Positions 8,588 through 50,600 of a stretch of 54,316 nt of DNA are shown piece after piece; position 1 is the first letter of the stretch; each line of letters begins with the position of its first letter. The position numbers and the translations under genes were made by a program. Source of the stretch: a virus (lineage: Duplodnaviria > Caudoviricetes). The stretch is from positions 1-54,316 of IMG/VR virus record IMGVR_UViG_3300029258_005835. One strand, 5' to 3'. The notes under the pieces were generated by a model. It ran no database searches, was not told the DNA's origin, and saw nothing but the letters and a program-made list of their open reading frames with translations.

Positions 8588-8797
8588 TAGTTGCTTCAAG
8601 CTTCACGTCGATCTTGGTGTAGGGAATACGACTATTTGGCTCAGGGTGTCCCAAGACTAGGCAAGTGTAAGGTGGAAGGAGGTGGTCTGTAGGGGTGAAG
8701 TAGAGAACAACATCGTAGACCCGCAGAGGTCGAGGAGGTGGGGGGTGTGTCGAGCAGAGGCGCGGAGAAGCGCGGACAGCACCGGAAGGAGGTGGCG

Positions 8798-8986
8798 GTG
8801 ACAGAGTACCACGTCAGTCTGGCTCTCGACGACGAGCAGAAGAAGCAGCTTCGGCAGCTTGCTCTGGCAAGCGACAAGTCGGTACGAGGGCTAATCACAG
8901 ACCTAGTGGTCGAGGCCATAGATCAAGCCGCCCAGGCGGGGCAAATACCACAGAGGAAGAGGAAAACCAAGAAGGAGGGAAACTAG
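8798..8986 (+). CDS. Ribbon-helix-helix DNA-binding protein
   Basis: YHVSLALDDEQKKQLRQLALASDKSVRGLITDLV; GGAGG before GTG 8798. Confidence 0.7.
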   Translation: MTEYHVSLALDDEQKKQLRQLALASDKSVRGLITDLVVEAIDQAAQAGQIPQRKRKTKKEGN

Positions 8987-8989
8987 ATC

Positions 8990-9742
8990 ATGGGTGGAGT
9001 AAGTATCAGACCCTCGGATTTCGTCGAGGGAGGAGTGGTCCCAGTCGATCGGAACCTGATCTGGGAAGAGTGCCGCTTCGAGTTGTTCGAGTACAAGAAG
9101 AAGGACGGGACGGTCGTGGCCACCACGACTGCGGCGCGGATCAGCTACAAGGACGATGAGGGGCGGGACTACGTGCAGCAGTACAGCGCGTCCGACCCCG
9201 AGCGGTTCCTGCCGTCCGACGACGGGAAGACTCTCGTCCCGCAGGGTGACGCGACGACGCTGAACCTGTCGTGCAACTTCTACCTGCTCCTGAACTCGCT
9301 GGTTAGCGCGGGGTTCCCCGAGGACAAGCTGACCGACGACATCTCGGTGTTGGACGGGTTGTACACCCACAACATCGGCGTGCCGGAACCCAAGCGTGCG
9401 GGGCTGGCGAGGGTGGCAGCAGAGGGCGCGCGCGAGCGCATCCTGTCCGTCCCCGACCAGATTCTGAAGCTCCCGTGGGAGGGAAAGAAGGGCGCCAAGC
9501 CAGCCGCGAAGGCCAAGTCAGCCGCGGCAGAGGGCAACGGTGAGGACGCCACGGCGGCTGCGGTGGCTATCGCTGCGGCCCTGCTCGAGGGAAGCGACTC
9601 CGTGACGCTACAGCAGGTGGCGGCGCAGGCCATCAGGGACAAGAAGCAACCGGCAGCGCAGATCGTGTTCAAAGACGAGTTCCAGGTGGCGCTGATCGAG
9701 GCCGGTATGGTTCTCGAGGACAAGGAGATAACCAAGGCGTAG
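8990..9742 (+). CDS. Hypothetical protein (candidate ssDNA-binding or recombination protein)
   Basis: 250 aa, strong RBS and codon bias, beta-rich N-terminus, lies in the replication module; function is inference. Confidence 0.55.
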   Translation: MGGVSIRPSDFVEGGVVPVDRNLIWEECRFELFEYKKKDGTVVATTTAARISYKDDEGRDYVQQYSASDPERFLPSDDGKTLVPQGDATTLNLSCNFYLLLNSLVSAGFPEDKLTDDISVLDGLYTHNIGVPEPKRAGLARVAAEGARERILSVPDQILKLPWEGKKGAKPAAKAKSAAAEGNGEDATAAAVAIAAALLEGSDSVTLQQVAAQAIRDKKQPAAQIVFKDEFQVALIEAGMVLEDKEITKA

Positions 9743-17880: not shown

Positions 17881-20604
17881 ATGCCGTACCCGCACGGTCA
17901 ACGTTACCACAGAACTCCGCCGCCTCTCCCCGACCCGTCCACCCTGCCCTTCCCCGGGAACCTGATACGGTTGTGCACGGACTGCGGCCTGCGAGCCAAG
18001 TGCAAAGCTCCCGTCCCTGGCGACGGGGCTGTTCCTGCCGAGGTCGCACTTGTCGGTGAAGGGCCGGGGCGCCAAGAGGATGAGTGGGGGTACAAACCGT
18101 TCGTAGGTCAGGCAGGGCAGTACCTCAACTCCCTGCTGTTCCAAGTCGGCTTACCCCGTGAATCCGTCTACGCCACGAACGTCGTCCATTGTCACCCTCC
18201 GGGAAACCGCACCCCGAAGCCCGACGAGGTGCGAGCGTGTGCTCACTGGCTGGACCTAGAGCTATCCCTCGTCCAGCCCCGTATTATCATGGCCCTCGGA
18301 GCAACCGCTATCGCTCGTTTCCTCGGTAACAACGCGGGGACGGTCGAGCACCTCCACGGTAAACCCATTGAGAAGGACGGCGTGATTATCCTTCCCGCCT
18401 ACCATCCCGCCTTCGCCCTCCATGACACCAGCAAGACGCGCCAAGTGAGCGAGGACTTCCAAGTCCTCCGTGGATTGGTCAAGGGCGCAGACTGGCGGAG
18501 CTACCACGTAGTCGACGAGTACCCGAACCCCGACTACCGCGTAGCCGACACACCCGCCAAGCTCCGGCAGATGCGGGACGAGATAAGCGACAGCGGCGAG
18601 TTCGCCGTCGATACCGAGCAGTGCCGAGGCAAGCTGTGGAGTGTCCAGATTTCAGCGCGACCGGGGACCGCGTGGTTCATCCCGATCCCCGACGATTTCC
18701 GAGGGAGGTACGATCTCACTGACCTGCCGGGGACGGCTATCGTCCATTACTGGCTCCACGATATTCAGTACGTGGTGCTGCGGGAGGATGATTTCATAGA
18801 CACGATGGTGGAGGCGTATCTTCTTCACCTCCCGCAGGGCCTGAAGGAACTAGCGTCGCGCCTATGTGGCGTCCAAATGAAGACCTACCGCGAGGTCGTC
18901 CGTCCCGGCCAGCAGGAACTGTCTCTGGAGTACCTGCTGCGTGCGTCCGGTCGCGAGTGGCCCGACCCGCCGCTGATCGAGGAGACCAAGTGGAACAACA
19001 AGAAGGGCGAACTGGTCACGCGGAACAAGAAGCCGTGGCATATCTCCCGCAAGATCAACGGCATCATAAACGACTTTTCCGCTGACGAGAACACCGACCT
19101 GTGGGATCGGTGGCGGAACATCCCCGCCGAGGAGCGTGCCGTGGTCGAGGACGTGCTCTCTCTCATGCCCGAGTCGTCGCTGGCCGACATCGACTTCGAC
19201 CAAGCGGTGCAGTACAGCGCGCGTGACCCCGACGTCACGCTCAGGGTCCACCACAAAATGCGGAAGATGATCGCCGACCTCGACCTCAACTTCGTGGAGT
19301 ACACGGACCTCGGCATCCTCCCGATGGTGGACAGCATGATGGCGAACGGGATGGCCGTGGATATCGAGCACTGCCGTCGCCTGTCCGAGGACTACGACGT
19401 CCGCATGAGGGTGCAGGCCGCCGAGCTTGCCGGAATGGTCGGCCATGCGTTCAACCCGAACAGTTCGCAGCAGGTCGCGGCGGTTATCTACGGTGAACTC
19501 GGGTTCAAGCCGACCAAGACCACAGCGACGGGGCTGATCTCCACCGACGATGCTGAACTGAAGAAAACGGGGCATCCGGTCGCCGAGGGGGTTATTCGCT
19601 ACCGTGGCCTGATGAAGCTGAAAAGCACCTACGCGGACAACATGATCCGGTCGGCCCATCCTGACGAGAGCGGCACCCCGAGGATGCACACGGTCATCAA
19701 GACGACGCGAGTGGAGACGGGGCGGCTCTCCTCGTCCAAGAATGACGAGGGGGAAGGTGCCAACCTCCAGAACATCCCGACACGCAACAAGGAGTCCAAG
19801 GCGATCAAGAACGGGTTTATCGCGCCTCCGGGCTGGCTGCTGGCTGAGTTGGACTACGGTCAGATCGAAATGCGCACCCAAGCTCACCTCGCGCAATGCA
19901 AGGGGCTGATAGAGTTGTTCAACAGAGGCGGCGACCCTCATACCGAGACCGCCGCACGCCTGTTCGGGGTCTCGCTCGATCAGGCCAAGCTGACCAAGTA
20001 CCGCTACCCGACCAAGCGTGCCGGATTCGGGATCATCTACCTGATCGGTCCACACGGGCTGTCCACGCAGATCAACGAGTACATCGCTGATCTCGCGATG
20101 GACGGTGAGTCCGTGGATATCGAGCCGTGGGACGAGTTGACCTGCGAGAAGTTCATCGCCGAGTACTATCGTCTCTACCCCGAGATTCGCAGCTACCAGT
20201 ACGCGCAGGTGGCTCACGCGCGGCGGTACGGGTACGTGAAAGACCTGTTCGGGAGGATCAGGTATATCCCCGAGGTTCACTGCCCGATACGGGCTATCAA
20301 AGAGGCCGGTGCTCGGCAGGCTGCGAACATGCCCGTGACCGCTACAGCCCAAGAAATTATCAAAGCAGCTATGGGCGAACTATGGAGGAGTCTGCCGCAG
20401 ACGGAGTGGGCGGACAGTCTGCGATGGGAAATGCAAGTCCACGACAGTTTGATAGTAGAAGTAGTCGAGGACGAGGAGGTTCACAAGCCGTGTCTGCGGT
20501 GGGTAGAAGACAACATGACGAACGTGGTGAGTCTGTTGGTACCCGTGGTGGTGGATACCAAGGTGGGAAAGCGGTGGGGGAGTCTGGAGAAGGTGGTGTT
20601 ATGA
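17881..20604 (+). CDS. polA: Family A DNA polymerase fused to an N-terminal family-4 uracil-DNA glycosylase domain
   Basis: UDG: CTDC, GEGPG, PFVG, HPA. Exo: AVDTE, DTM, YSARD. Pol: TGRLSS, NLQNIP, LDYGQIEMR, RYPTKRAGFGIIY, QVHDSL. Confidence 0.95.
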   Translation: MPYPHGQRYHRTPPPLPDPSTLPFPGNLIRLCTDCGLRAKCKAPVPGDGAVPAEVALVGEGPGRQEDEWGYKPFVGQAGQYLNSLLFQVGLPRESVYATNVVHCHPPGNRTPKPDEVRACAHWLDLELSLVQPRIIMALGATAIARFLGNNAGTVEHLHGKPIEKDGVIILPAYHPAFALHDTSKTRQVSEDFQVLRGLVKGADWRSYHVVDEYPNPDYRVADTPAKLRQMRDEISDSGEFAVDTEQCRGKLWSVQISARPGTAWFIPIPDDFRGRYDLTDLPGTAIVHYWLHDIQYVVLREDDFIDTMVEAYLLHLPQGLKELASRLCGVQMKTYREVVRPGQQELSLEYLLRASGREWPDPPLIEETKWNNKKGELVTRNKKPWHISRKINGIINDFSADENTDLWDRWRNIPAEERAVVEDVLSLMPESSLADIDFDQAVQYSARDPDVTLRVHHKMRKMIADLDLNFVEYTDLGILPMVDSMMANGMAVDIEHCRRLSEDYDVRMRVQAAELAGMVGHAFNPNSSQQVAAVIYGELGFKPTKTTATGLISTDDAELKKTGHPVAEGVIRYRGLMKLKSTYADNMIRSAHPDESGTPRMHTVIKTTRVETGRLSSSKNDEGEGANLQNIPTRNKESKAIKNGFIAPPGWLLAELDYGQIEMRTQAHLAQCKGLIELFNRGGDPHTETAARLFGVSLDQAKLTKYRYPTKRAGFGIIYLIGPHGLSTQINEYIADLAMDGESVDIEPWDELTCEKFIAEYYRLYPEIRSYQYAQVAHARRYGYVKDLFGRIRYIPEVHCPIRAIKEAGARQAANMPVTATAQEIIKAAMGELWRSLPQTEWADSLRWEMQVHDSLIVEVVEDEEVHKPCLRWVEDNMTNVVSLLVPVVVDTKVGKRWGSLEKVVL

Positions 20605-20663
20605 AGATCATATGCTACGTTCTTGGATACCTATGACGAGATAGAGGCGATCAGGAGGTCGGT

Positions 20664-20900
20664 ATGTGGGTAGTTGTAGGGGTGGTGTCGTACATTGTCG
20701 TAGGGGTCTTGGCCGTCTGGCTCATAGCCCTTGCGGACAGGGTGACAGGCCAACGGGTGGAGACTGAGATAGAGAGCTTTACCGTCGGGCTTGCCGTGCT
20801 GCTCTGGCCGCTGTGCCTCGTATTCCTCATCATCATGTACGGACTCGACGCGGTCACGTTCGTCGCCAAATGGCTGCGTGGAGAGGGCGTGAAGTCGTGA
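20664..20900 (+). CDS. Small membrane protein
   Basis: Two hydrophobic helices with LLWP; GGAGG RBS. Confidence 0.6.
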   Translation: MWVVVGVVSYIVVGVLAVWLIALADRVTGQRVETEIESFTVGLAVLLWPLCLVFLIIMYGLDAVTFVAKWLRGEGVKS

Positions 20901-20928
20901 GTAGCGCGATCAACGAACTGGGGGTGCT

Positions 20929-21141
20929 GTGATGATCTGTCCGAACTGCGGCCACGAGATCAGTGACGAACTGGTGCGGGATGCAGCACTGGCTCTGGAG
21001 CCGGATCGGTATGTGCAGGCGCGGAATCCTATGTCGAAGCGGTGGGTGAAGATAGACCGCTGGTCGGGTCGTATCGTTGGTACGTCACCGGAGCCGTGGC
21101 CTAGTGTTCCAGTGAAGGGGAGCGCATCCTCTAAAAAGTGA
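20929..21141 (+). CDS. Small Zn-ribbon-like protein
   Basis: CPNCGHE; QARNPMSKRWVKID. Confidence 0.55.
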   Translation: MMICPNCGHEISDELVRDAALALEPDRYVQARNPMSKRWVKIDRWSGRIVGTSPEPWPSVPVKGSASSKK

Positions 21142-21156
21142 GGAGGGTTTAGAGCC

Positions 21157-21471
21157 ATGACAACTATTGAAGCAGACGGCAACTTGGAGACGCTGCTGTC
21201 CAGTCTCTACGACGTACGGCGACAGAAAAAGGAACTGGGCGAGACGGAGGAGAAGCTGCTCGCGGAGATCAAGCCGCTGGTAGACTCGCAGTTCGACGTG
21301 CTGCCCAAAGCACCTATCACCGCTGGTGGTATCGTGCTGACCCGTGTTTCCGGTGTGAACCGGACGATCTCTGCGGACAAGCTGCTCGAGCGTGGCGTGT
21401 CGCCGGAGATCGTCGCCTTTGCGACGAAGACGAGAGAGTACTTCCAGTACCGTACCAGCACAGGACAGTAG
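21157..21471 (+). CDS. Hypothetical coiled-coil protein
   Basis: 104 aa, GGAGG RBS. Confidence 0.65.
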   Translation: MTTIEADGNLETLLSSLYDVRRQKKELGETEEKLLAEIKPLVDSQFDVLPKAPITAGGIVLTRVSGVNRTISADKLLERGVSPEIVAFATKTREYFQYRTSTGQ

Positions 21472-21473
21472 TG

Positions 21474-21638
21474 GAGGAGTGTTGGTACGCTCTTGACAAG
21501 ATTGTATGGATAGGTGTATAGTGACTACGAGGAGTGTTGGTACGCTCTTGACAAGATTGTATGGATAGGTGTATAGTGACTACGAGGGGTGTTGGTACGC
21601 TCTTGACAAGATTGTATGGATAGGTGTATAGTGACTAC
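21474..21638 (+). repeat. Three tandem 55-bp repeats, each containing a sigma70-type promoter
   Basis: Unit GAGGAGTGTTGGTACGCTCTTGACAAGATTGTATGGATAGGTGTATAGTGACTAC at 21474, 21529 and 21584 (one mismatch); TTGACA-N18-TATAGT in each. Confidence 0.95.
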
Positions 21639-21797
21639 TCTGTCAGCTAAAGCAGACAGCTTCTGCCGGAACGCACGGCCTACTGGCCCACGTTGGCTCG
21701 GCAAGGCTCAGTCCGAGCCTCAGAATATTCAAGGCAGCGTTGACATCGCGGTCAAGCACCAACCCGCAGGAAGGACAGGAGTGAACACGGTCAGCGT
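21631..21797 (-). mobile_element. tnpB: IS200/IS605 remnant: 3' end of tnpB plus right end (omegaRNA scaffold)
   Basis: DRVHSCPSCGLVLDRDVNAALNILRLG is the TnpB Zn finger/RuvC-III; followed by the RE hairpin GAAGCTGTCTGCTTTAGCTGACAG and the end GTAGTCAC. Confidence 0.88.
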
Positions 21798-21830
21798 GCG
21801 TGGATGCAGGGTAAGCAGGAGGCACAAGCA

Positions 21831-21980
21831 ATGGCAGACGTGAGGTGTCCGGCGGGTCACACAAAGACGTGGAAAAAGGGCCGTGTGCCAACGCGCCAAG
21901 GGCCGAAGACGCGGTACATCTGCTCCGTGTGTGGGAGGACGTTCTACGCGCCTGCCGACCGGAAGAAAGTCAGGAGGTAG
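21831..21980 (+). CDS. IS1/InsA-like Zn-ribbon mini-protein (49 aa)
   Basis: Manual translation MADVRCPAGHTKTWKKGRVPTRQGPKTRYICSVCGRTFY...; AGGAGG RBS. Confidence 0.7.
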   Translation: MADVRCPAGHTKTWKKGRVPTRQGPKTRYICSVCGRTFYAPADRKKVRR

Positions 21981-21985
21981 TCGAG

Positions 21986-22321
21986 ATGCCGATATTCGAC
22001 GCCGATACCCAGACGCTTCGGAGCAAGATCGACAAGTATGTCGAGGGCAAGGTCAAGGCATCGTACGTGCACTCCCAAGTGTCAACCCTCGGGGGAGTCA
22101 GCCGTGCCGCGATCATTGTGAGGGTGTCTCTCGACCCGAAGTCCAAGTGGTCGAACGGTATCTACCAGAACTCGCGTTACGCGATGTTTCGTCTGGACAG
22201 GAACGGCACGCTGGAACAGTTCGCGCAGTCGTACCTGCTCAAGAAGATGCGGAAGCAGAAGGCGACCAGTGTGCCAGATGCGATAGCGCGGATCAACAAG
22301 TACCTGAGTTCGGTTCGATAG
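21986..22321 (+). CDS. Hypothetical protein
   Basis: AGGAGG RBS before MPIFDAD. Confidence 0.65.
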   Translation: MPIFDADTQTLRSKIDKYVEGKVKASYVHSQVSTLGGVSRAAIIVRVSLDPKSKWSNGIYQNSRYAMFRLDRNGTLEQFAQSYLLKKMRKQKATSVPDAIARINKYLSSVR

Positions 22322-22341
22322 GCTGGGAAGGGAGGATCGAG

Positions 22342-22551
22342 ATGGCAAGACGAGTGACGATGACGAGGGGAGATGCTAGGAAACTGCTCGCCGATGCGGG
22401 TGTTGATTGGAGGGAGGACTACCACACGCTCCGTTCCAGCGAGGTAGACAAGGTGCTCGCCGTCGCCAAGCTGTATGGGTATCGTCGGTCACGGGGGGCT
22501 TCGGGGTCCAAGGCACGAATGTTCTTCCAGATGCTACAGAGAATGAGGTAG
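22342..22551 (+). CDS. Small basic hypothetical protein
   Basis: GGAGG RBS before MARRVTMT. Confidence 0.65.
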   Translation: MARRVTMTRGDARKLLADAGVDWREDYHTLRSSEVDKVLAVAKLYGYRRSRGASGSKARMFFQMLQRMR

Positions 22552-22583
22552 GAGGCCGACGATGGGAACACAGGAGGTGAATC

Positions 22584-22970
22584 ATGCCATCTAGGGTGCG
22601 GATATACGACAATGGAGGAAAGACCGTTGACCGCTACACGCTGGTGGTGCCCAGCGTAGATGAGCCAAGAAAGCTGGATATGTACGGTTTCAACGCAGCG
22701 CCGTACCACCCGCAGGGGTTTGGTCAGTATGCTGGCTCGTACGACCAGATGGGGTCGTACTCACATCTCGGTAAGCTGGTTCCTCTATCTGCTCTGCCGG
22801 AGCAGGCGCAGCGGTTTGTGCGTGAGACGCTGACTACACCGTTACCGGACGGGTATGGGATGCCTCTGCCGACGTCTTGGCCGGGGAAGACGAAGCCCAA
22901 GTCTCCAGCCAAGCGGAAGCCTGCTAAGAGGTCACGGAACTCACCGTCTGGTATCCAGAGGATGAGGTAG
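22584..22970 (+). CDS. Hypothetical protein with basic C-terminal tail
   Basis: RIYDNGGKTVDRYT N-terminal domain; tail KRSRNSPSGIQRMR. Confidence 0.75.
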   Translation: MPSRVRIYDNGGKTVDRYTLVVPSVDEPRKLDMYGFNAAPYHPQGFGQYAGSYDQMGSYSHLGKLVPLSALPEQAQRFVRETLTTPLPDGYGMPLPTSWPGKTKPKSPAKRKPAKRSRNSPSGIQRMR

Positions 22971-22975
22971 AGCCG

Positions 22976-23161
22976 ATGGCGAAGCGAAAGCCAGCCTCTC
23001 GAACCAAGAGCAAGCGCAAGACGGACAAGCGCCGGAAGAGCACGACCGCGCAGAGTGCCGCTGGTGGGCACGATACCAAGTCTCGCAAGAAGTACGACCG
23101 AGGCGGCAGGGTGGAAGCCTACACCTTCGGGGAAGCACTCGGCGGTAAGAGTTGGCCGTAG
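22976..23161 (+). CDS. Small very basic protein
   Basis: K/R-rich 61 aa; GAGG RBS. Confidence 0.6.
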   Translation: MAKRKPASRTKSKRKTDKRRKSTTAQSAAGGHDTKSRKKYDRGGRVEAYTFGEALGGKSWP

Positions 23162-23741: not shown

Positions 23742-23771
23742 TTGACAAACTATTGCCTCCGGTAGTATAAT
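23742..23771 (+). promoter_or_regulatory. Consensus sigma70-type promoter of the structural operon
   Basis: TTGACA-N18-TATAAT. Confidence 0.8.
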
Positions 23772-23814: not shown

Positions 23815-23997
23815 ATGAGAAAGCAAACCAAACCCCGATGCCCGCACTGCAAGCGGACGATCCCCGTCACTCGCCACAGCATCCACAGGCGTCCAGACGG
23901 GACGACCTACTCCCGCTGGATGTGCCGCGACTGCGGGGCCACGTTCCTCCAGCGCGCGGACAGGCGGCGCACGGGGAACTACAGGAGCAAGTACTAG
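23815..23997 (+). CDS. IS1/InsA-like Zn-ribbon mini-protein
   Basis: CPHC...RWMCRDCGATF; RBS. Confidence 0.7.
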   Translation: MRKQTKPRCPHCKRTIPVTRHSIHRRPDGTTYSRWMCRDCGATFLQRADRRRTGNYRSKY

Positions 23998-24021: not shown

Positions 24022-27000
24022 ATGGCGACGAACAAGGAACGTCAGGCTGAACTCCGAGCGCGGTCGGCGGCACGGAAGGCCGCGGGAGCGGTTGCGCCAC
24101 CGACCGCCGATCCAGCACCGACGCCCAAGCTCGACCCAGGCGCCCCGATGTCTCCGTCGACGATACCGACATCTGCGCCCGAACCCAAGGTCGACCTAGG
24201 CGCTCCAATGTCCCCATCGACCATACCGACGACCGTGTCTGAGCCGACGCAGCCGGAACCCACACCGACTGTCGTAGGTGTTGTAGGCGCCCCGCCGACC
24301 GTCCCTGCCCCCTTCGCACCAACCCCAGAGGGCGTGAAGGCCGCCGAGGAGCACTACGGTTCACCGGAGGCTGTTCAGGAGGCTGCCGCCCAGCAGGTGA
24401 AGGCAGTAGAAGAAGCACAGGCACCGACGATAACGCCTTCCCCAACAGGCCCAGTACCCGGAAGCATCGAGTGGTACCGACAGCGGGGGATCAACGTCAT
24501 CATGCCTCGCCCTTCCACAGCCGAGGAGATAGTCGAGTCCGAAGCAGAGCGCGCAGAGCAGGGGCTGGAGCCGTCCCTGCCACCCGAGGTTGTAGAGCAG
24601 GCACGAGCGGCTGTGGAAGCAGGAGAAGGCGCGTCCCCGCAGGTCGCCATCCAACACCTACTGGAGACGACGGGCAAGCTGCCGGAACTGCACCCCGACC
24701 AGATAGCTGCTGCCTTGGGCGAGAAAGCGACCGCCGAATACCTTGAACTTGCTGGAGTGGAGAACGCCGCAGCCGTCGCCGCCGCAGCCGCTTCTCGGGC
24801 GGAGGCAGAGTTGAAGCTGCGTGCCGCAGCCGGACTGGGTGTGTCCGACCCCATAACCGCCTCCGACATCCTCAAGGTGATCGGGAGCGTGGGATCAGGA
24901 GAAGCGACGGCGCTGATGGAGCAGGCGGGATACGCGAACCCGCAGGAGTTCGTTTCCTCGGCGGAACAGGCGGCACAGATGCAGGAGGCCATCACGGGGA
25001 GCGCGTCCTACATCGACGCCGAGGGGAACATAGACCTTATCGCAATGACTCGCGACCGAGGTGTTGAGCAGGCGGCGGCTGACCTCGCTGCCATGGGCGC
25101 GGTCGGTTATGAGGCGCAACTGAAAGCGGTAGGAGCAGCCCTTCCGTACATCGACGACGAGGGCTATATCAATGTCGATGAGTTCTCCAAGTTCTACGGC
25201 ACCGAGGAGGCCGTGAAGATGCTCGGTGACTTGGGCGTGGGAGGTGCCGCGGAGCTGGAGGAGAAGATACGCCACCAGTCGAACCCCTACAGAGGGCAGG
25301 CGTGGTGGGATGCTTGGTACGAGCAGAGGGCGCAGGATGAGGCTACAGCCAAGGCCGAGATAGCCCAGATGATCGACGACAAGACCGAGCGGGGTCTTAT
25401 CGCGAGTTGGTACGACCAGAAGAGGGCGCAGGACGAGGCGAAAGACCTGTTGCAGCAGCAGGGAATCATCATGTATCAGGAACCGCCTAAGCAGGCGTTC
25501 GTGGCCCCCGCTCTTGCCCTCCCTGCTGGGGCTGTACTTCCGGCCTTGGGTGGTCCTATAGGGGTAGCCCTCGGTGCTGTCGTCTTGGCTGGGATGCTTG
25601 CGTACCAGTACCGGGACGAGATAGCGGGTCTGTTCGACAGCAAGGCATCGTCCGGTGAACCTATCACAACAGCAGATGTCATGGCCGCTACCGGAGTCAG
25701 TCAAGCGCAACTTGCGAATATAAACTCCCGCGTTGCGGCGTTTGTCACGAAGCCAGAGGCGAATACGGTCGTGCCCGTAGCAATATCCGCGACCTCGACG
25801 GTAAGCCCGACGGTTGTGGTGCAGGAACCTCCTATACCAGCGACTGAGACGGTTCCGCTGGAGGATGCCGTAGCCGCTGCTGAGACGTTTGTGCCGCCGA
25901 TGGTACAAGAGGTCGAGACATCACCGTTCCCGTCAGCCCCCGCCATCGAGCCAGAGCCGGAGACCTTCACCCACGTTCTACCGAAGACGTTCGGTCTGCG
26001 TGATCCGGCGACGGGTGAACCGCTCCCCGAGGGGCTGATGGTCAGCCCTCAATGGGAAGAAGCTGTTGTCAAGCTGGCGAGGGATATGTACAACATACCC
26101 CGACACGTGCCGCTCGATAGCGAGACGTTCCACAAGCTGAATCCACTCATCATGCGGAGCGCCGCCGGGGAAGCTGTCACCATGCCGGATATCACGCTCA
26201 GTGGCACAACATACACGGTCCCCGAGGTTGCCCCAGTCGGGCACCTTACGCAGACTTTCATCGGTAGTCTTTCCGGTGAGGAGGCTAGGGACTTTGCTAT
26301 GGCTGTTGCCGTGACATCTGTGAGTGATGGCCTCGTGGGCGACGTGGAACCTGGTCTCTCTGCCGCCGAACTTCGTGATGTGTTATACATACGAGCTGCG
26401 GAGACATTGCACAATATGGCTGGGGACTTGTCTCCCGATACTGCGGCCGCCCTCCAGCCTTTTATCCTCTCGTTGGCGCTGAAGGCTACGGATACCGGCT
26501 TGGCGTCCGGTGCGTACGATATTTATGCGAGTCGTATGCCGACAGAGCCGACGACGCAAGAGTTGTTCGAGGAGGCTATGGCGACCCCCGTCGCTCCTGC
26601 GGATGAATCGTCTGTCGCGCCCGAACCGACGGTTCTCGAGCCGGAGATTGTTGAGCCTGTGTCTACTGTGGTCGAACCCGCGTCCGTGGTAGTTGAGCCT
26701 GCGGATGCGGTTGGGCCGGTAGAGGCTGAGTCGACGGAATCGGTAGAAGCCGTTGAGCCTACAGTTCCTAGTGAAACGGTTGTTCCGGCAGAGGCTGCAC
26801 CCGCTACCGTTCCGGCTGCAACGACTACACCAGCAGTCGCGGTACTGGAGCCGGTGGAAGAGCTGGAGCAGCTTGTGCAGGAGGCGCAACTCGCTTCATT
26901 TGCTGACTTGTACAACAGCGCTGCTGCGTCGGAAGCAGCTGTCTCAGCTGGGGTGACAGCCGCGCAGGCACAGGCTGCTCTTCTCGACGCTATGGTCGTG

Positions 27001-28056
27001 GCAACGGACGCCGCAGTCGAGCAGGCGAGCACGCTGGAGAACAAGCCGTACTACCCGTCCGAGTTTCAAGAGAGCATCGCCCATGCTGTCAACGCCGCGC
27101 TGCTGGCGCACACCAGCACCATAGAGGACTCGAACGTGGCTGATTTCGTCAACTCAATCACGAAGCCTATCGTGAACACTACGGTCGATTCTGTTGCGGA
27201 TGCTCGGACGCGGTTGGGTGATCAAGCACAGACCCAAACACAAACTGAAGCACAAACGCAGACTCAAGCGCAGACTCAAACACAGGCCCAGACGCGGGTC
27301 GCGGTGCGGCCAAGGGTGAGAGCCATGCCTCGCGTGGCGGTACGGACAGCAGTGCAGACGCAGACGAGGACGCGGACGAGACCGATCCTTCCGCTGCCGC
27401 CCCCTGACGGGACTTCCCCTAAGCGGAAGACGGCCGTCGTGTCTCCCGGGTCGCTCGCGTGGGCGCAGGGCATCTTCTGGAAGTATATCCCGTGGCCGTG
27501 GACGGACAGGAAACCGAGGTCCACGCGGTACGCCCCCGAGGGAGCGCGTAATCCCGACGGGACGCGACCTGCGGACACGATACAGATTATCGGTCAACCG
27601 CCGGGGATCGTCCCCGAGAAGGTCAGCATCGACCTCGGGATTTCGGATATCTTCATAACCGACTACGGGAAGCGGATTGAGTTCGCGGGTCACGGGCAGC
27701 GAACGGATGTGGGGAAGCGGATAGACAGCACCACGAAGGGTATGTCCATCCCGTCCGTGGAGTCGAGGAGCACCGCTGAGGTCGCACCAGAGCCGCTCAG
27801 TCCGCGAATAGAAGGGTCGGAGCGTCCGGCGCGACCCGTGGCACCCTCCGAGCCGCCTGCGCCCGCCAAGAGGCGCACAGGGGAGGACAGCCCATATTTC
27901 GATGAGAAGCCGGACTGGCTGGGCGTCCCGACGGATCACCTCGACAAGCCGTGGGCACGGGAGCCATTCGAGAAGAAGACCAAGCCGCGAGGAGCGAAGA
28001 AGAGAAGCAGGACGCGGAAGGCGGATCAGACGGCGCTAGGAGGAATGCGAAGATGA
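24022..28056 (+). CDS. Large Ala/Pro/Glu-rich protein with a central hydrophobic segment and basic tail (putative virion protein)
   Basis: 1344 aa; internal repeats PK(L/V)DxGAPMSPSTIPT x2, WY(E/D)Qx(x)AQDEA x2 and a QT run; TM-like GPIGVALGAVVLAGMLAY. Confidence 0.75.
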   Translation: MATNKERQAELRARSAARKAAGAVAPPTADPAPTPKLDPGAPMSPSTIPTSAPEPKVDLGAPMSPSTIPTTVSEPTQPEPTPTVVGVVGAPPTVPAPFAPTPEGVKAAEEHYGSPEAVQEAAAQQVKAVEEAQAPTITPSPTGPVPGSIEWYRQRGINVIMPRPSTAEEIVESEAERAEQGLEPSLPPEVVEQARAAVEAGEGASPQVAIQHLLETTGKLPELHPDQIAAALGEKATAEYLELAGVENAAAVAAAAASRAEAELKLRAAAGLGVSDPITASDILKVIGSVGSGEATALMEQAGYANPQEFVSSAEQAAQMQEAITGSASYIDAEGNIDLIAMTRDRGVEQAAADLAAMGAVGYEAQLKAVGAALPYIDDEGYINVDEFSKFYGTEEAVKMLGDLGVGGAAELEEKIRHQSNPYRGQAWWDAWYEQRAQDEATAKAEIAQMIDDKTERGLIASWYDQKRAQDEAKDLLQQQGIIMYQEPPKQAFVAPALALPAGAVLPALGGPIGVALGAVVLAGMLAYQYRDEIAGLFDSKASSGEPITTADVMAATGVSQAQLANINSRVAAFVTKPEANTVVPVAISATSTVSPTVVVQEPPIPATETVPLEDAVAAAETFVPPMVQEVETSPFPSAPAIEPEPETFTHVLPKTFGLRDPATGEPLPEGLMVSPQWEEAVVKLARDMYNIPRHVPLDSETFHKLNPLIMRSAAGEAVTMPDITLSGTTYTVPEVAPVGHLTQTFIGSLSGEEARDFAMAVAVTSVSDGLVGDVEPGLSAAELRDVLYIRAAETLHNMAGDLSPDTAAALQPFILSLALKATDTGLASGAYDIYASRMPTEPTTQELFEEAMATPVAPADESSVAPEPTVLEPEIVEPVSTVVEPASVVVEPADAVGPVEAESTESVEAVEPTVPSETVVPAEAAPATVPAATTTPAVAVLEPVEELEQLVQEAQLASFADLYNSAAASEAAVSAGVTAAQAQAALLDAMVVATDAAVEQASTLENKPYYPSEFQESIAHAVNAALLAHTSTIEDSNVADFVNSITKPIVNTTVDSVADARTRLGDQAQTQTQTEAQTQTQAQTQTQAQTRVAVRPRVRAMPRVAVRTAVQTQTRTRTRPILPLPPPDGTSPKRKTAVVSPGSLAWAQGIFWKYIPWPWTDRKPRSTRYAPEGARNPDGTRPADTIQIIGQPPGIVPEKVSIDLGISDIFITDYGKRIEFAGHGQRTDVGKRIDSTTKGMSIPSVESRSTAEVAPEPLSPRIEGSERPARPVAPSEPPAPAKRRTGEDSPYFDEKPDWLGVPTDHLDKPWAREPFEKKTKPRGAKKRSRTRKADQTALGGMRR

Positions 28057-38456: not shown

Positions 38457-38486
38457 ACTATAGCACACACACGCACACAATGTCAA
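38457..38486 (-). promoter_or_regulatory. Leftward sigma70-type promoter
   Basis: Minus strand TTGACA-N18-TATAGT with TGn. Confidence 0.75.
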
Positions 38487-38724
38487 CCCCCCTGTCACCA
38501 AAATCATGAAAATCGTCAAAATCGTACGTAAAATCGAACCCATGTTCTAGGGATTTCCGAGGATTTCTGAGGGTTTCCGAGGGGTATAACCTCCTCCGGC
38601 ACCCCCCGAGCGCGACCCTCGGGCACCAGCGTCGAGCGCCAGCGTCGGGCACCCGCATCGGTCGCCACGCGCGTCCGCGCCGGACCAGCACGAGCGTCGG
38701 AATCCCCGTTCCGTACGGATGTTC

Positions 38725-38754
38725 TTGACAGATGTTCTATTGTCGTGATAGAAT
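38725..38754 (+). promoter_or_regulatory. Sigma70-type promoter of the intron-containing gene
   Basis: TTGACA-N18-TAGAAT with TGn. Confidence 0.8.
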
Positions 38755-38801: not shown

Positions 38802-39974
38802 ATGTCAGTCAGAGGATTGGTAACGGTGGTAAGTAACGATTGCCACCTAACCCAGCTCATATCGGTGAAACCCTACTGCTCGCGGCAACGGAGCAAGGGC
38901 AATACCGAGGGAAGTCGGGGAGATCGTTTTCTCCCTTGACCCCGTAGAGACTGACGACCGACTGCAAATGCCGAATCTAGGCGACATCGCGAAGGCATCG
39001 GAGATAGGCTATAGCGGGCGTGCGTTGTTCGTCTGGATAGCTTGCCCCGACTGCGGTACGCAACGGTGGCGTCCTCTCCACAACGAGATCACACGCTGCT
39101 GGAAGTGTTCGGCCAACAAGCGCGAACGCGACTTAAAGCCGATCACCTTCCTTGGCACGGGTGCGCCGATAGTCGGAGACACGACCACAGCGGCTGCGAT
39201 AGGGAAAGCCGGAAGAGGAATCTATGCCTACACTGCTTGCCCCAAGTGTGGAAAAACACGTTGGGTTCGGTGGCGACAGATGGATTCGCTGTGCACAGCT
39301 TGCACGGCGCTATCGAACAGCGTGCGATCCGGCAGCGAACACCCCAAGTGGAAAGGCGGAGTCAAGAAAACACGAGGCTACGTCTACGTGCTGATTCCGC
39401 GAACAGACCCGCTTTTCCCAATGGCTGTTAAGCGCTACAAGAATCAAGGTGTTGTTGCCGAGCACAGGCTTGTCGTGGCACGGTCTATCGGTAGGCCGTT
39501 GCGCCCCGACGAGGTCGTCCATCACATCAACGGCACCAAGGACGACAATCGCAGGGAAAACCTTCGGCTGCTTACTAAGCAAAGCCACCACTCAGCCCTA
39601 GTGATGCAGGAGACACAGGATAGGGTGCGAAACCTTGAGGTTAGAGTGACGATGCTTGAGGCAGAGAACACGGCATTAAAAGCTAGTTTGCAGGAGGTCG
39701 GAGATAGCGACACCTCTCCAGAACTGAATTTGCGTCGCTATAATACGCTGGGCGACCTGCCTGACAAGCAGGTTGAAGGTATAGTCCATGCCCCCTAGTA
39801 ATAGGAGGACAAACACGGATCGGCGTAGTTGCCTTTGTGGTCATCGACAGCCTAATCACGAACATCATCACGGGAACAGATACTGGGAGCGTTATACTAC
39901 AGAATTTGCTCCGGGTGATCGTGGCAGCGGCCATCCTGATCGGTGTGGTCATGTCGATTGGTCGGAAGGGCTAG
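38802..39974 (+). CDS. Intron-split 61-aa two-helix hydrophobic protein, join(38802..38830,39818..39974); candidate major capsid protein
   Basis: Spliced product MSVRGLVTVVIGVVAFVVIDSLITNIITGTDTGSVILQNLLRVIVAAAILIGVVMSIGRKG; the exons sum to 186 nt in frame. Confidence 0.85.
38831..39817 (+). ncRNA. Group I self-splicing intron (IA-like, with P7.1/P7.2)
   Basis: P1 GGUGGU/GCCACC with U.G at the splice site; P3 CCCAGC/GCUGGG; P4 UCGGUG/UACCGA; P7 GACUG/UAGUC; P8 ACCUGC/GCAGGU; J8/7 GAAGGUA; P9 CCUA-GUAA-UAGG; omega-G 39817; P10 CGAUU/GAUCG. Confidence 0.93.
38968..39798 (+). CDS. Intron-encoded HNH homing endonuclease with two Zn-ribbon repeats
   Basis: CPDCG..RW..CWKC and CPKCG..RW..CTAC; HPKWKGG; EHRLV...VHHINGTKDDNRRENL. 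Confidence 0.92.
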   Translation: MPNLGDIAKASEIGYSGRALFVWIACPDCGTQRWRPLHNEITRCWKCSANKRERDLKPITFLGTGAPIVGDTTTAAAIGKAGRGIYAYTACPKCGKTRWVRWRQMDSLCTACTALSNSVRSGSEHPKWKGGVKKTRGYVYVLIPRTDPLFPMAVKRYKNQGVVAEHRLVVARSIGRPLRPDEVVHHINGTKDDNRRENLRLLTKQSHHSALVMQETQDRVRNLEVRVTMLEAENTALKASLQEVGDSDTSPELNLRRYNTLGDLPDKQVEGIVHAP

Positions 39975-44528: not shown

Positions 44529-44644
44529 CAATGGAGTACGATGCGCGGACTGCTGGGCTACAGGGTTAGTTGGTTCCGGCTGGCCTGGTGCGCCTTCTGG
44601 CTGTCTTTGCCGGCAGCCATTTTTGTAGTTGCGCAGAGGGTAGT

Positions 44645-47600
44645 ATGACTCAAGCAGAGCACAACGCACGAGAGCAAGAGGCACGGCACAAACTAGGTAT
44701 CCTTGGCCGTATTATCCTCGCTCTCGTTGTTTTTGTTGTCACTCTTCCTATCTCTATCTCGCTCGAAACGCATGTTATCCCCTATTTGCCGTGGTTGGGG
44801 AGTGGAGAGCAGAATGTCGCTCGTGCAGAACCCGACGTATCTGATTTCACGTACTCGCATATCGTCACGGTCAAGAACAACTCAGGAGCAGCAGTCACAA
44901 ATCCCATACTGCGAATCCCTGTAATCCCCTACGAGGCTATTGATGTATCGACGTGGACAGTCACACTCGCTGATTCTAATTCTCATACCTACAACACCTG
45001 TATCCCTATCCGTGTGGCAGAGATGGCGAATGAGACCCTGACGAATCATGAAGTCAAGGTCGGGCCAATTGATACTGAGTGGCTCATAAATAACAGTTGG
45101 GCCTCGGCAGATGGGAATGAGTGCGTTTTTGCTACAACCAATGATAGCACGATAGCTGCCTCAGACCTGATGCGCTGGTATTGGGACGGGCAATCCGATG
45201 GCCCTTATGGATGGGATGAGCCTGATACCTACTTCTGGGTTGAAGGCAACCTGACTGCATGGGGTAATGACACATGGTACATGCTGATTGACCCTGACCT
45301 TGGCTCCATCGTACCAGGAGCAGGGACGACGAAGTGCACAAGTGGCATTTTTGATTTCCACGACCCTATGGACGATGGGGATAACTGGGATACAGACGAT
45401 GGCTCCGAGTCATACGCTGCGGGTATCTGCACAATCAGGGATGGCACAGACCCGGAGCAGATTACCTCCAAATCAACCTTTGGTGAAGATCATGGGCTAC
45501 GAGCCAGGGTCAATGTCCCAAATGCAGACGGGAATGATATTCTTGAGGGTTCACAATTCGGGTTCTCGAATGATGGTCGCACTCTTGATCTTGCTTTTAT
45601 CAACCTGCAATTCGCTAATTATGACGAGGCCATAGAGTGTGACGACGCGGCTGTTACCGTGGAAGACGACCAATACCCCTATGTAGAGGGCTCCTATGCG
45701 GTCTATGACATCCAGCGGCGCGACGACCATAGTGCAGATAACAGATCGGTATGGGGCCAATTCCACTGCAATAATGTTCAATTGACCGACGCGCCAATAT
45801 GGACAAATGTACCCGACGACGCCCTTGAAGTCCTATTCTGGTCAGACGATGAGAATTTACTTATTGATTGGGTGTTTGTCTACGACTATGTTTCGCCCGA
45901 GCCGATAGTCAATATTCCCTTCATACACCACGACCCTGATACCGTCTTCCTGGCCGAAAGGTGCGAGCACTGGCCCTACGATATAGAGTTCACCAAGACG
46001 GGGAACACCTCTGAACTCTACAATCATGCTGACCGGACAACGCTCTCCTCGGAGTACGCGACTGAGTTCTATGTTGAGTACATCGGCACGATCAATAACG
46101 GGGCTTCAGCCAACGTAACCATTCACTACGGCAACGCTGCCCAGTCGAGTGCATCAGCCTATCGGGATGCCTCCAAAGTCTTCGACGGCACAGGCGCGTT
46201 CTGGGATGACTTTGAAGGCGTCATACTATGGGCCAATACATCAGGGACGTGGGGGCTGTCAGACCAGCAGAGAGCAGAGGTTTTCGACTATCACCTGATG
46301 AACCAGGACGATGACTTATCATCTATCTGGGCGGGTAGCCCTACATGGACTTATGACGGAGATGAGTGGATGCTGCCGTTCGTAGGCTCGTGGGCGGGGA
46401 CAACCAGTAACAATCAAGGGGACCCCCAGTGGATGATACCGTGGGAGAATGTCCTATATAAGAAAATTGGGAGCCAGTGGTATAGGTGGGGATATGTTCT
46501 GACAGGCGAATATGACGAGTTCAACCATGCGTCTTCGCTGGGTAGGTTTGCATGGTATGGCGACGACTCACACATGGGCAACTCTAGTTGGCTTTACTTC
46601 CTCCTTGGGGTTACTACTGTCGAAGATGGAGATGGTGCCTCATTCCTTTTCTATTCAGAGGACGGTGGTAAACACTGGAAAGTCCTGAACGGAGGTGCGC
46701 CCTACGTTGATCTCACCTGTACTGATGCTGTTGATGTGCGGGGCCGTTTTGCCAGCTTGGTCTACGACAATGGCTATTGGTTCCAAGGCTACACAAATGC
46801 TGTGGATAGTTGGGACCCGAGTTATCTCTATGCAAACGATACGGCTTTTGAGGATATGCTGTACGACCGAGGCACGATCGTTCCCGCTGACGTATGGACA
46901 GACGGAGGGGAGATAATAAACACAGGCGTGGGTGAGGGGATAGAGGAGTTTTACTGGTATCAAAAAGCAGGCGGGAACTGGACACTCCAAGCCGAAGTGA
47001 TAATAGATGACGATTTGGTTTATTCAGATTGTGATGGCGATGACTTTGGAATAACCATGGACTCAACCGACTGGTCGGCGCTGGCAAATATGAAAGACCA
47101 TGACGACATCTATCAATGGTCTGCCGTTGACAGAAATACCCCCCACTCCGTTGTAGGTGGGGATAGCCCCAATATGGTCTTTGGTGGGGCGCAGTCACCT
47201 ATGGAAAGGACCACACAGCTTGCCTTTGCACACAGTAGCAGTTTTGCTGGCGATGATTGGACTCTCCAGAACATTGACAAGGAACGATGTCAGGCTGCCG
47301 ATGCAGCAGCGTGGCAAACTTCAACTGTCACAGGAGGGAACTACTCAGCAGGGGAGATCATTGCTGAGTGCACAGTCCACACAACTGGCGGAGATGGCTA
47401 CGCAGGCATCGTGTGGCGCTACGAGGACGACGATAATTTCTGCGCGTGGGTTGTGAATTCCATAAACGACACGATGTCTTATGGTATTCAGTCAGGCGGT
47501 GTCTGGAGTGGGTTGACCAGCTATGACCCCGGCGAGGAGATATGGCTTGGCGAGAACTACCGCCTCGCAGTGGAGTTTGATGGGGCCACAACGACGCTCA

Positions 47601-50600
47601 AATACTCAAAGATCGGCTGGGAGTGGACAACAGCGTACAGTGACATTGACCTATCAGATGGCAACGTGGCGAACTATGGCAGCGCGGGAACGATCACCTA
47701 TGGCACGTATGGCCTGTTTGACGACTTCCGCATATCACCGAATGCGCTTGGTGATTTGGAGATCACCGACCAGGGAATGCTCACCGTCACGACTGAGGCA
47801 GCGACAGGAGTAGGTACAACATCGGCCACCCTCGTTGGCAACATCACAGCAGGGACAGCGGCAGCGATAGGCTTCGCGTGGGGTACAGCCTCATGCGGTG
47901 ATCCCGGCGATACAGCACCGGGAGATTCGTCCTACAACCTTGATAGCCGGACCAACGTAGATGAGTGTGCCACAGGGCAATACACCCACGGTGCAACTGG
48001 GTTACCACAAGGATCAACAATCTACTACCGCTTCGCTGCACAGTCAGAGGCGTTCCCCGGCACATGGTACTGGGGAGATGAGGAATCGTTCAGCACTGCT
48101 GGAACACCAACCTGTGTAACGGACACCGCGACAAATGTAGACGAGACATCGGCTACCTTGCGAGGAAACATCACCGCAGATGAGACAGTTGCCGAGATGC
48201 AAGCGCTCGGCTACACCGTCGTCAGCACCGGCCCCAGTAATTATGGTGTTGGTGATTACTCCGACGCAATCAGTGGACTCAACGAGGGCACCTGTTATTA
48301 TGCCAGATTTGGTGCCAACAATACGGTCGGCTTTGGTTGGGGCAGTGAAGTTACTCTTGTCACATTGCCCCGTCCACCAAACACCTGCACCGTTTCGAGC
48401 TATGACGAAGACTCAATCTCTCTGACGTGGAATGCTGGTAACGGCTCAGGCGATACCGTTATCCGCTATGGAACATCATGCCCAGCCAATTATACAGACG
48501 GTTCCAGCGGCTATGTCGGCAACGGAACATCCTGCACTATCAGCGGTCTCTCGGAAGGGACTCAATACTGCTTCCGAGAGTGGAGCAACACTACATCTTG
48601 TAGCGAGACGGTATGGTCGAGCACCTACTGCGAAATCACGCAGTATACTTTGCCGGGGAATATCACCAATCTCGATGCCGATAATCCAAGTGCGACGACG
48701 ATTGACTTAGAGTGGACTGTTGGCAGCGGAGCCAATAGCACTGTTGTGCGTGGAAAGCAGGGTTCATACCCTACCGATAGAACCGATGGTGTTGAAGTCT
48801 ACAATAGCACCGGGAACTCGACAACCCACACCGGGCTTGGCTGCGGAGAGTCATGGTACTACCGCGCGTGGTCGTATGATGCCGAGTCAGGATACTACAG
48901 CGCCGGATACAGCGAGGATGCCAACGCGACTTCAGCCTGCAACGCTCCTGCCGTTGTCACGACTTCTGCGACGTCAGTCAATGTAACCTCAGCGACGCTG
49001 AACGGGAATATCACCGACACCGGGAACAGCGACGTCACGAACTACGCATTCGTGTGGGGGAACTCGTCGCAAGCCGCACCTGTGGGAGCGCCGCCGGGAA
49101 ACTATGATGATTCGTGGACCTCCGACGCTGGTAACTATACCGTCGGTGACTACAACCATGGGGCACCGGGACTCAACGAGGGTGACTGCTATCATTTCAG
49201 GATTGGCGCCAACAACTCCGGCGGCTGGACGTGGGGCGACGAACTCACGTTCGTGACGCTGCCGTACCCGCCACACACTTGCTCGGCTACTCTCGCTGAC
49301 CTCACCGACACCTTCATGCCGTTCACGTGGGTCAAAGGATCAGGAGCCAACGAAACCGTGTGGCGATATGATACCGTAGCCAACGGCTGCCCAGCCAACG
49401 TCACTGATGGACTGGATGCTGGGACGTACAGCGGGACGAGCGGGAACATCAGCGGCTTGGCTCCGTCTACCGAGTACTGCGTGTGGGGACAGTGCAACAC
49501 TACTGCCTGCAACGAGACGGTGTGGAGCGACGGGCATTGCGACTTCAACCAGTATACACGCCCGGGGAACTGCACCAATTTCGACGCAGACAACCCGTCC
49601 GATACCACGCTTGACATCGAGTGGACAGTAGGGTTGGGATCGGACTACACGATGGTCAGGTATCGCACCGACACCTACCCGACGGACGAGGCGGACGGGA
49701 CGCAAGCGTACTACGACACGGGGAACTCGACGACGCTGACGTTGGACTGTAATACGACCTACTATTTCCGCGCGTGGGCGTACTATACCGTGTCAGGGTT
49801 ATACGCGGCTGGCTACTGCCAAGATGGGAATGCAACACTGACCTGCCAGAACTGCACGGTCGTCACCAATCCCGCGACCGACGTCGAGGAAACGAGCGCG
49901 ACGCTCAACGGCAATCTCACCGATGTCGGCTCGGGGAACGCTACCGACTGGGGATTCGTATGGTCCACGTCGAGCCATGGCGCGCCCGGTAACGTCGCTC
50001 CCGGTGCGTCAGGGTACGAGCAGTCCAGCATTGCCAGCGGCAACCATGGAGTCGGGACGTTCAGCGGCGCTACTGGTGATGTTCTGAGTGAAGGGGACTG
50101 CTACTACTTCAGGGCGTGGGCGAACAACACTGGGGGGTACTCGTACGGCGAGGAGAGACAGCTGTTCACGAAACCGGACGAACCGAGCGGGTGCTCCGCG
50201 ACCGACCACACCTATGACTCAGTGACGCTCTCGTGGACGAACGGGGACGGGTACGGGAACGTCACGGTGCGGTATGACACGACGTTGAACGGGTGCCCTG
50301 CCGACGAGACGGACGGGTCTCTGGGGTACTGGGGGACGGCGGCGACGACTACGGTGAGTGGGCTAGACCCGAACACGGAGTACTGCTTCCGCATCTGGAG
50401 CCATGCGGACGGATGCAACAGCACGAGCTGGTACTCCGACCTGTACTGCGAAGTCACGGAGTACACGTCACCGGGGAATGTCACTAACTGCGATGCACAC
50501 GGCCCGACGTACACCACCATCGACCTTGACTGGACGGTGGGCAACAACAGCGACATGACCCTCGTGCTGGGACGGAATGACGGGTCGTACCCCACGGGAC

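Follow-up and report, generated by a model that had tools for sequence, protein, structure and literature searches.

The DNA analysed here (the window) is a complete IMG/VR provirus record of 54,316 nt, with a CheckV completeness of 100%. Its plus strand carries nearly all long ORFs, and those in the left part encode ribonucleotide reductase, a helicase, an ERCC4-type nuclease, an HD protein, and a family-A DNA polymerase. The polymerase (17881-20604) has a uracil-DNA-glycosylase-superfamily (UDG) domain fused at its N terminus, and a 3'-5' exonuclease domain too. Roughly 0.9 kb downstream of the polymerase gene, between genes for proteins of 104 and 49 aa, lie a tandem array and the right-end remnant of an IS200/IS605-family insertion sequence (IS) (Table 1). 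The Shine-Dalgarno sequence of the 49-aa gene, AGGAGG at 21817-21822, stands about 15 nt past the inner break of the remnant. Two small zinc-ribbon genes, 21831-21980 and 23815-23997, each have a consensus promoter ahead of them, the triplicated one described below and TTGACA-18-TATAAT at 23742, respectively, and the protein of the former gave two tblastn matches apiece in three related phages (L122, L123, and L124). Two much longer ORFs, one of 2428 aa with fibronectin-III repeats (44570-51856) and one of 1344 aa with a visible TQ-repeat stretch and no Pfam match at E ≤ 1e-5 (24022-28056), presumably encode virion or tail proteins. A tRNA scan of the window for clues to the host found none, and no cultured phage matched region 21100-22300 at the DNA level (megablast, near-identity mode).

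Table 1. Features of the array, the IS remnant, and the adjoining phage genes, in window coordinates
Feature	Position	Strand	Details
Upstream phage gene, 104 aa	21157..21471	+	Stop codon ends 2 nt upstream of the array
Tandem array, 3.0 x 55 nt, head to tail	21474..21638	+	Two tools agree; junctions also in Logan contigs of runs X1-X4
Array copies	21474-21528, 21529-21583, 21584-21638	+	Identity 100/100/98%
Promoter-like site P1, TTGACA-N18-TATAGT	21493..21522	+	11/12 consensus positions
Promoter-like site P2, identical to P1	21548..21577	+	11/12 consensus positions
Promoter-like site P3	21603..21632	+	-10 hexamer 21627-21632 = TATA (phage flank) + GT (first two IS-end bases)
Would-be guide, TATACACCTATCCATACAAT	21611..21630	-	Directly 3' of scaffold; identical copies at 21556-21575 and 21501-21520
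IS200/IS605-family right-end remnant	21631..21801	-	Homology to full-length relatives from 21801-21795 to 21631
Complete omegaRNA-type scaffold	21631..21772	-	Model R1: 140.8 bits, E 5.8e-37, positions 1-142 of 142
Right-end (RE) subterminal hairpin, CTGTCTGC-TTTA-GCTGACAG	21640..21659	-	Then nine nt, AGTAGTCAC, to IS end
Last ~50 tnpB codons and stop	21643..21795	-	Second half of zinc ribbon and C-terminal tail; TAG at 21645-21643; frame intact
First gene downstream of promoters, 49-aa zinc-ribbon protein	21831..21980	+	AGGAGG at 21817-21822

A minus-strand ORF (21643-21891) matched the TnpB/Cas12f TNB zinc-ribbon profile (PF07282; E 5.6e-9, 36.5 bits, cut-off 26.3) in part, with ORF residues 32-56 aligned to profile positions 36-60 of 60 (window 21724-21798, minus strand). 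When longer proteins were searched with a 52-aa query, 79 of 131 candidates scored at E ≤ 1e-3, and the best matches were TnpBs of 381-382 aa that were 88% identical over the query, P0001 being the top one. Alignment to eight such TnpBs placed the window opposite their C-terminal ~50 residues only, from ADRVHSCPSCG onward. DNA of relatives was fetched from genomes, metagenomes, and viral contigs (119 loci), 33 of which gave blastn matches to the minus strand of the window. Among the 12 best, homology ran from window position 21801-21795 to 21631-21628, a length of ~165-171 nt, in agreement with an earlier note on this DNA, made from the letters alone, which had tnpB reduced to about 165 bp, its last codons together with the RE hairpin. 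All 14 relatives aligned across the terminus (12 distinct sequences) end in [A/G]GAGTAGTCAC and are unrelated from the next base on, and hence the octamer GTAGTCAC (21638-21631, minus strand), already named as the RE terminus in that note, is the true IS end. A pattern search returned 22 distinct right ends with unrelated flanks; since the pattern contained the terminus, the independent evidence from this search is the divergence of the flanks alone. The right end found here is that of an intact IS, with a subterminal hairpin, a conserved terminal motif, and a sharp end of homology.

One relative, L044, is a full element comprising a left end (LE), a Y1_Tnp TnpA (PF01797, E 1.6e-40), a 382-aa TnpB (PF12323, PF01385, and PF07282), and the RE; other relatives are tnpB-only. 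The nearest full-length relatives are uncultured and share 72-81% amino acid identity with P0001, and named TnpBs, from Thermus plasmids and phages, are 44-48% identical to it. TnpB genes were present in 617 of 50,697 cultured-phage records. Another viral contig from IMG/VR (L118, 2880-4170) carries an intact member of the IS family that has tnpB only, with a left end, a CCATAA flank, a right end, and a TnpB 76% identical in amino acid sequence to P0001.

Within the window, TnpB is represented by the remnant only, to which a profile of the full-length relatives matched at just positions 326-382. Neither the RuvC domain (PF01385, E ≤ 1) nor the Y1 transposase TnpA (PF01797) had a match in the window, and no tldR gene or other TnpB-like ORF was found there. 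The LE motif had no match in the window with up to three mismatches, and CCATA[A/G], the sequence that borders the left end in relatives, is absent from the inner break of the remnant. As it has no left end, the remnant is a truncation and not a mini-transposon. Comparison with relatives had been suggested in the earlier note. None of four related phages (polymerase 61-66% identical; gene order here differs) carries the remnant or the repeat, and model R1 (below) found no match in them. The DNA polymerase match of one related phage, L124, is split by ~830 nt (8598-9430; residues 26-854, then 822-907), pointing to an intein, an intron, or the insertion of a homing endonuclease.

The retained DNA had been proposed to encode the omegaRNA, and structural analyses uphold this. 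A covariance model (R1) built from 19 relatives, with the window left out, gave a single match in the window, at full length (Table 1). RNAalifold on 23 sequences predicted 33 pairs, 21 of them with compensatory changes, in a fold with three local stems plus a long-range helix that joins GGUUG to the terminal GUAGUC and, in the window, pairs 21764-21760 with 21637-21633. The window keeps 32 of the 33 consensus pairs, the exception being an A-C at 21698/21669, much like the intact elements of the 10 closest relatives, which keep 31-33. Folded as a single sequence, the minus strand was unremarkable (z -1.18), and the evidence for structure therefore comes from covariation, not folding energy. 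Rfam contributed no omegaRNA family across region 20500-23000 at E up to 10, returning one chance snoRNA match only. A conserved structure that lies over the 3' end of tnpB and ends at the RE has the features of a TnpB omegaRNA scaffold, and we designate it as such by sequence and predicted fold. The remnant holds the whole structured scaffold and about 30 nt more.

The IS end, fixed at 21631 by the 14 aligned relatives, divides each 55-nt unit of the array into 47 nt of phage intergenic DNA and 8 nt of IS right end (GTAGTCAC). Because the 8 terminal IS bases are present in every unit, duplication occurred later than insertion. The sole difference among the three copies is A->G at 21588. Such repetition of the flank was seen at none of the RE ends of the fetched loci (0/33).

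An assembly artefact behind the triplication had been named as one finding that would undo the earlier reading, and public sequencing runs speak to this in part. The region is present in four DNA runs (X1-X4) from three studies; they appear to form two near-duplicate pairs, and one of them may represent the source sample. None of the runs listed for the region is recorded as RNA. Their Logan contigs (k=31) break at the repeat. An 85-nt contig identical to 21554-21638, spanning a unit junction and the G variant, is present in X1 and X2, and one identical to 21474-21558, with a unit junction and the A variant, in X3 and X4. The two junction types of the window are thus each represented, though not in the same runs. 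Hence, the head-to-tail junction exists in DNA and at least two copies are real, whereas the third lies beyond the reach of k=31 contigs, and three is the count in the assembled record. The depth of the 85-nt cycle contigs (8.3-9.7) relative to the flanks (6.9-10.3) is closer to two copies than three, but such depths are too crude to count by. Other contigs in all four runs share window 21627-21664 with one mismatch, next to another flank and with a diverging interior. Their summed depth was 160-197, compared to 7-10 for the phage, which makes related IS right ends common in these communities and leaves room for a trans-acting TnpB in the host.

On the plus strand, each unit carries a promoter-like site antisense to the scaffold whose -10, TATA/GT, spans the IS junction (slash), as had been read from the letters alone. 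The window has three occurrences of the 30-nt promoter core, where 100 shuffles gave an expectation of 0.00, and the looser pattern TTGACA-N16-19-TANNNT was found 10 times in the window against 0.63 expected, with 3 of the 10 being the array. In two related phages, intergenic DNA contains single TTGACA-17-TATACT/TATAAT sites. Given their -35/-10 consensus, their intergenic position, and a genome that uses such sites, those of the array would be promoters of the sigma-70 type. The predicted start of P3 is ~7 nt after 21632, at the foot of the RE hairpin, and all three sites are convergent on the scaffold, with predicted activity antisense to the omegaRNA. The minus strand between 20600 and 22600 has no promoter-like site, hence none facing the scaffold. 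Elsewhere, back-to-back divergent consensus promoters, TTGACA-18-TATAGT (minus) and TTGACA-18-TAGAAT (plus), were noted just upstream of an HNH endonuclease gene (window 38457-38754 and 38968-39798).

The flank in the guide position is indeed repeated three times in the record, with GTAGTCAC before each copy, as described previously. For the TAM of the IS family, 14 distinct left ends with upstream sequence were recovered from relatives. CCATA[A/G] lies immediately 5' of the conserved left-end sequence in 12 of the 14, its place being taken in the other two by CCATCA or CCGTAG, and the flanks show no relation to one another farther upstream. This TAM, inferred from LE flanks, leaves the exact cleavage point uncertain by 1-2 nt. 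It differs from the RE terminus that precedes all three guide copies, so no copy is a TAM-flanked target. No TAM+guide site was found in the window. Apart from the array copies, a 16-nt guide matched the window at one further site, 30800, with three mismatches and no TAM, which was taken as chance and rejected as a real target. Scans of IMG/VR, from which the window's own record may have been excluded, gave 0 matches each for the 30-mer promoter, the 28-mer minus IS bases, and TAM+guide, and found neither an empty-site allele nor a close relative. Following the logic published in the available part of PMC10055086, we infer a pre-insertion site ...GGTGTATA/[C/T]TATGG... on the plus strand (slash, IS junction), and the original -10 would therefore have been TATA[C/T]T. 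A sequence resembling the inferred TAM, CCATAC, lies inside the would-be guide itself (window 21614-21619, minus strand) and recurs at the equivalent position of the other two units.

Taken together, the locus is probably the scar of an IS insertion into a -10, followed by internal deletion and tandem duplication with promoter amplification, rather than a working RNA-guided system. A neutral scar with promoter amplification was one of three inferences in the earlier note and fits the data best. Under this scenario, an IS200/IS605-family element of the tnpB (382 aa) type, perhaps also carrying a Y1 tnpA, would have entered the -10 of a sigma-70-type phage promoter heading the operon that starts at 21831, in an orientation antisense to phage transcription, and the IS end would by chance have restored a usable -10. 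A later deletion would have taken the left end, the first ~330 tnpB codons, and tnpA if there was one, leaving 171 nt that happened to include the whole omegaRNA scaffold. The 55-nt hybrid-promoter segment (~-54 to +6, including the 8 nt of IS end) may then have been duplicated in tandem by unequal recombination or slippage. Amplification may have been favored because it would send more transcription into the downstream operon. The scaffold would today be a passive part of an mRNA leader, read antisense, and not a working guide RNA. Duplication by TnpA or TnpB was considered and rejected, the unit borders being unlike both the TAM and the terminal motif.

Several observations count against a scar with amplification. 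The unit borders match one complete promoter and no microhomology was seen at the duplication junction, which leaves the mechanism of duplication unexplained. The deletion spared ~30 nt beyond the whole scaffold, through chance or selection. The abundance of related IS right ends in the four runs, with the host TnpB that it would allow, also weighs on this side. An intact scaffold and an open tnpB frame are expected of a recent event and equally of a maintained RNA; they suggest that the events were recent and would also be compatible with maintenance.

Use of the remnant as a stand-alone omegaRNA in trans appears unlikely. A host IS TnpB would load the RNA and cleave the 'empty' allele (CCATA[A/G] then TATACACCTATCC...) of co-infecting or competing phage relatives, with the consequence, equally unlikely, that the remnant-plus-promoter allele is driven by homing or rivals are excluded. 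Consistent with this, the scaffold is complete with the guide directly after it, the four runs are rich in right ends with the same terminal 28-34 nt (1 mismatch), and stand-alone omegaRNAs active in trans with compatible effectors are reported in the available parts of PMC10691335 and PMC10055086. However, the scaffold has no promoter-like site of its own on the minus strand and three strong predicted promoters run convergently into it, the missing left end means that the remnant is not a mobilizable PATE, and TAM+guide sites were found in neither the window nor IMG/VR. If such relics were used in trans by host TnpBs, phages would carry cheap, protein-free targeting modules; as it stands, the main value of the locus is as a defined substrate for testing, with a complete scaffold, a known guide, and a predicted TAM.

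Hairpins at the 5' end can stabilize mRNA, and the remnant could in principle have been exapted in cis on the plus strand, which we regard as distinctly unlikely. The inverted RE hairpin at the 5' end of P3 transcripts, or the antisense scaffold, would stabilize or tune the operon mRNA, and the array would set the dose. The expected P3 start at the hairpin foot and the end of the remnant just short of the Shine-Dalgarno sequence accord with such a role, but the predicted fold of the plus-strand leader is no more stable than that of shuffled sequences (z +0.25) and the relatives manage without the remnant.

There is a slim chance that the locus is a live effector-less guide module, that is, a TnpB-dependent homing or exclusion device whose RNA, loaded by host TnpB, targets the promoter allele without an interruption (CCATA[A/G]+TATACACC...) for cutting in relatives that compete or co-infect, and whose repeats are a snapshot of serial omegaRNA-segment duplication toward CRISPR arrays. 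Highly improbable, too, is an antisense decoy, in which an abundant plus-strand leader would pair with the omegaRNAs of host IS copies and disable host TnpB. Although the leader is the exact complement of the omegaRNA scaffold and related RE ends abound in the same samples, the match to the abundant copies is confined to the terminal ~34 nt, beyond which they diverge (loose end at 21664), the phage has no known benefit because TnpB targets donor joints, and the remnant is not conserved in related phages. Self-regulation, in which a TnpB or TldR guided by the remnant RNA would bind and repress the three promoter copies, and which takes up the earlier note's idea that a trans-acting TnpB/TldR is recruited to the element's own promoters, is scarcely credible: the guide overlaps the spacer and -10 of every copy and TldRs do repress via promoter binding, but TldR and TnpB both require a TAM (available text of PMC10705468), all three targets have GTAGTCAC in place of the inferred CCATA[A/G], and the window has no tldR, tnpB, RuvC domain, or TnpA, nor a minus-strand promoter-like site facing the scaffold.

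The remnant resembles the omegaRNA (reRNA) of ISDra2-type OMEGA systems in that the scaffold lies over the tnpB 3' end, terminates at the RE, and is followed by a flank in the guide position, with covarying conserved stems and a long-range helix closing the scaffold. Unlike OMEGA systems, the phage locus lacks tnpB, tnpA, and the left end. Gene-less omegaRNAs and PATE-like IS200/IS605 derivatives are described in the available parts of PMC10691335 and PMC10055086, and by those accounts gene-less omegaRNA relics are an already known kind. In common with them, the phage remnant is an effector-less omegaRNA module that could act only with a TnpB in trans. In contrast, PATEs, in the same sources, keep both ends and are mobilized, whereas the phage remnant lacks a left end and any evident promoter of its own, and R1 matched the window at a single site rather than at multiple copies.

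TldR repressors of prophages provide a second comparison (available text of PMC10705468), as there too a TnpB-type guide is complementary to a promoter -10 region in a phage genome. Here, however, the match is merely the flank of the insertion site, and the window has no nuclease-dead TnpB (tldR) gene adjacent and no TAM-flanked promoter target. Serial duplication of omegaRNA segments is the proposed origin of type V CRISPR arrays in the available part of PMC10691335, and the phage array likewise repeats the scaffold 3' end and guide head to tail. The likeness to CRISPR arrays suggested earlier is nevertheless weak, given that just 8 nt of scaffold are repeated where repeats of ~20 nt or more and differing spacers are expected, the three 47-nt 'spacers' differ by a single base, there is no effector, and the unit is a promoter on the other strand.

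Hybrid promoters generated by ISs and tandem amplification of promoters are both familiar, and the locus shares features with these. As in IS hybrid promoters, the end of a mobile element supplies part of the promoter and a short tandem duplication multiplies it; unlike them, the flank here gives the -35 and four -10 bases, and the IS gives the last two -10 bases and the start region. What is new at the locus is that the RE-flank junction is repeated in tandem, and promoter amplification is the best reading of this on present evidence. These data suggest the locus is a base-level example of how IS200/IS605 insertion, truncation, and short tandem duplication can rebuild and multiply a phage promoter.
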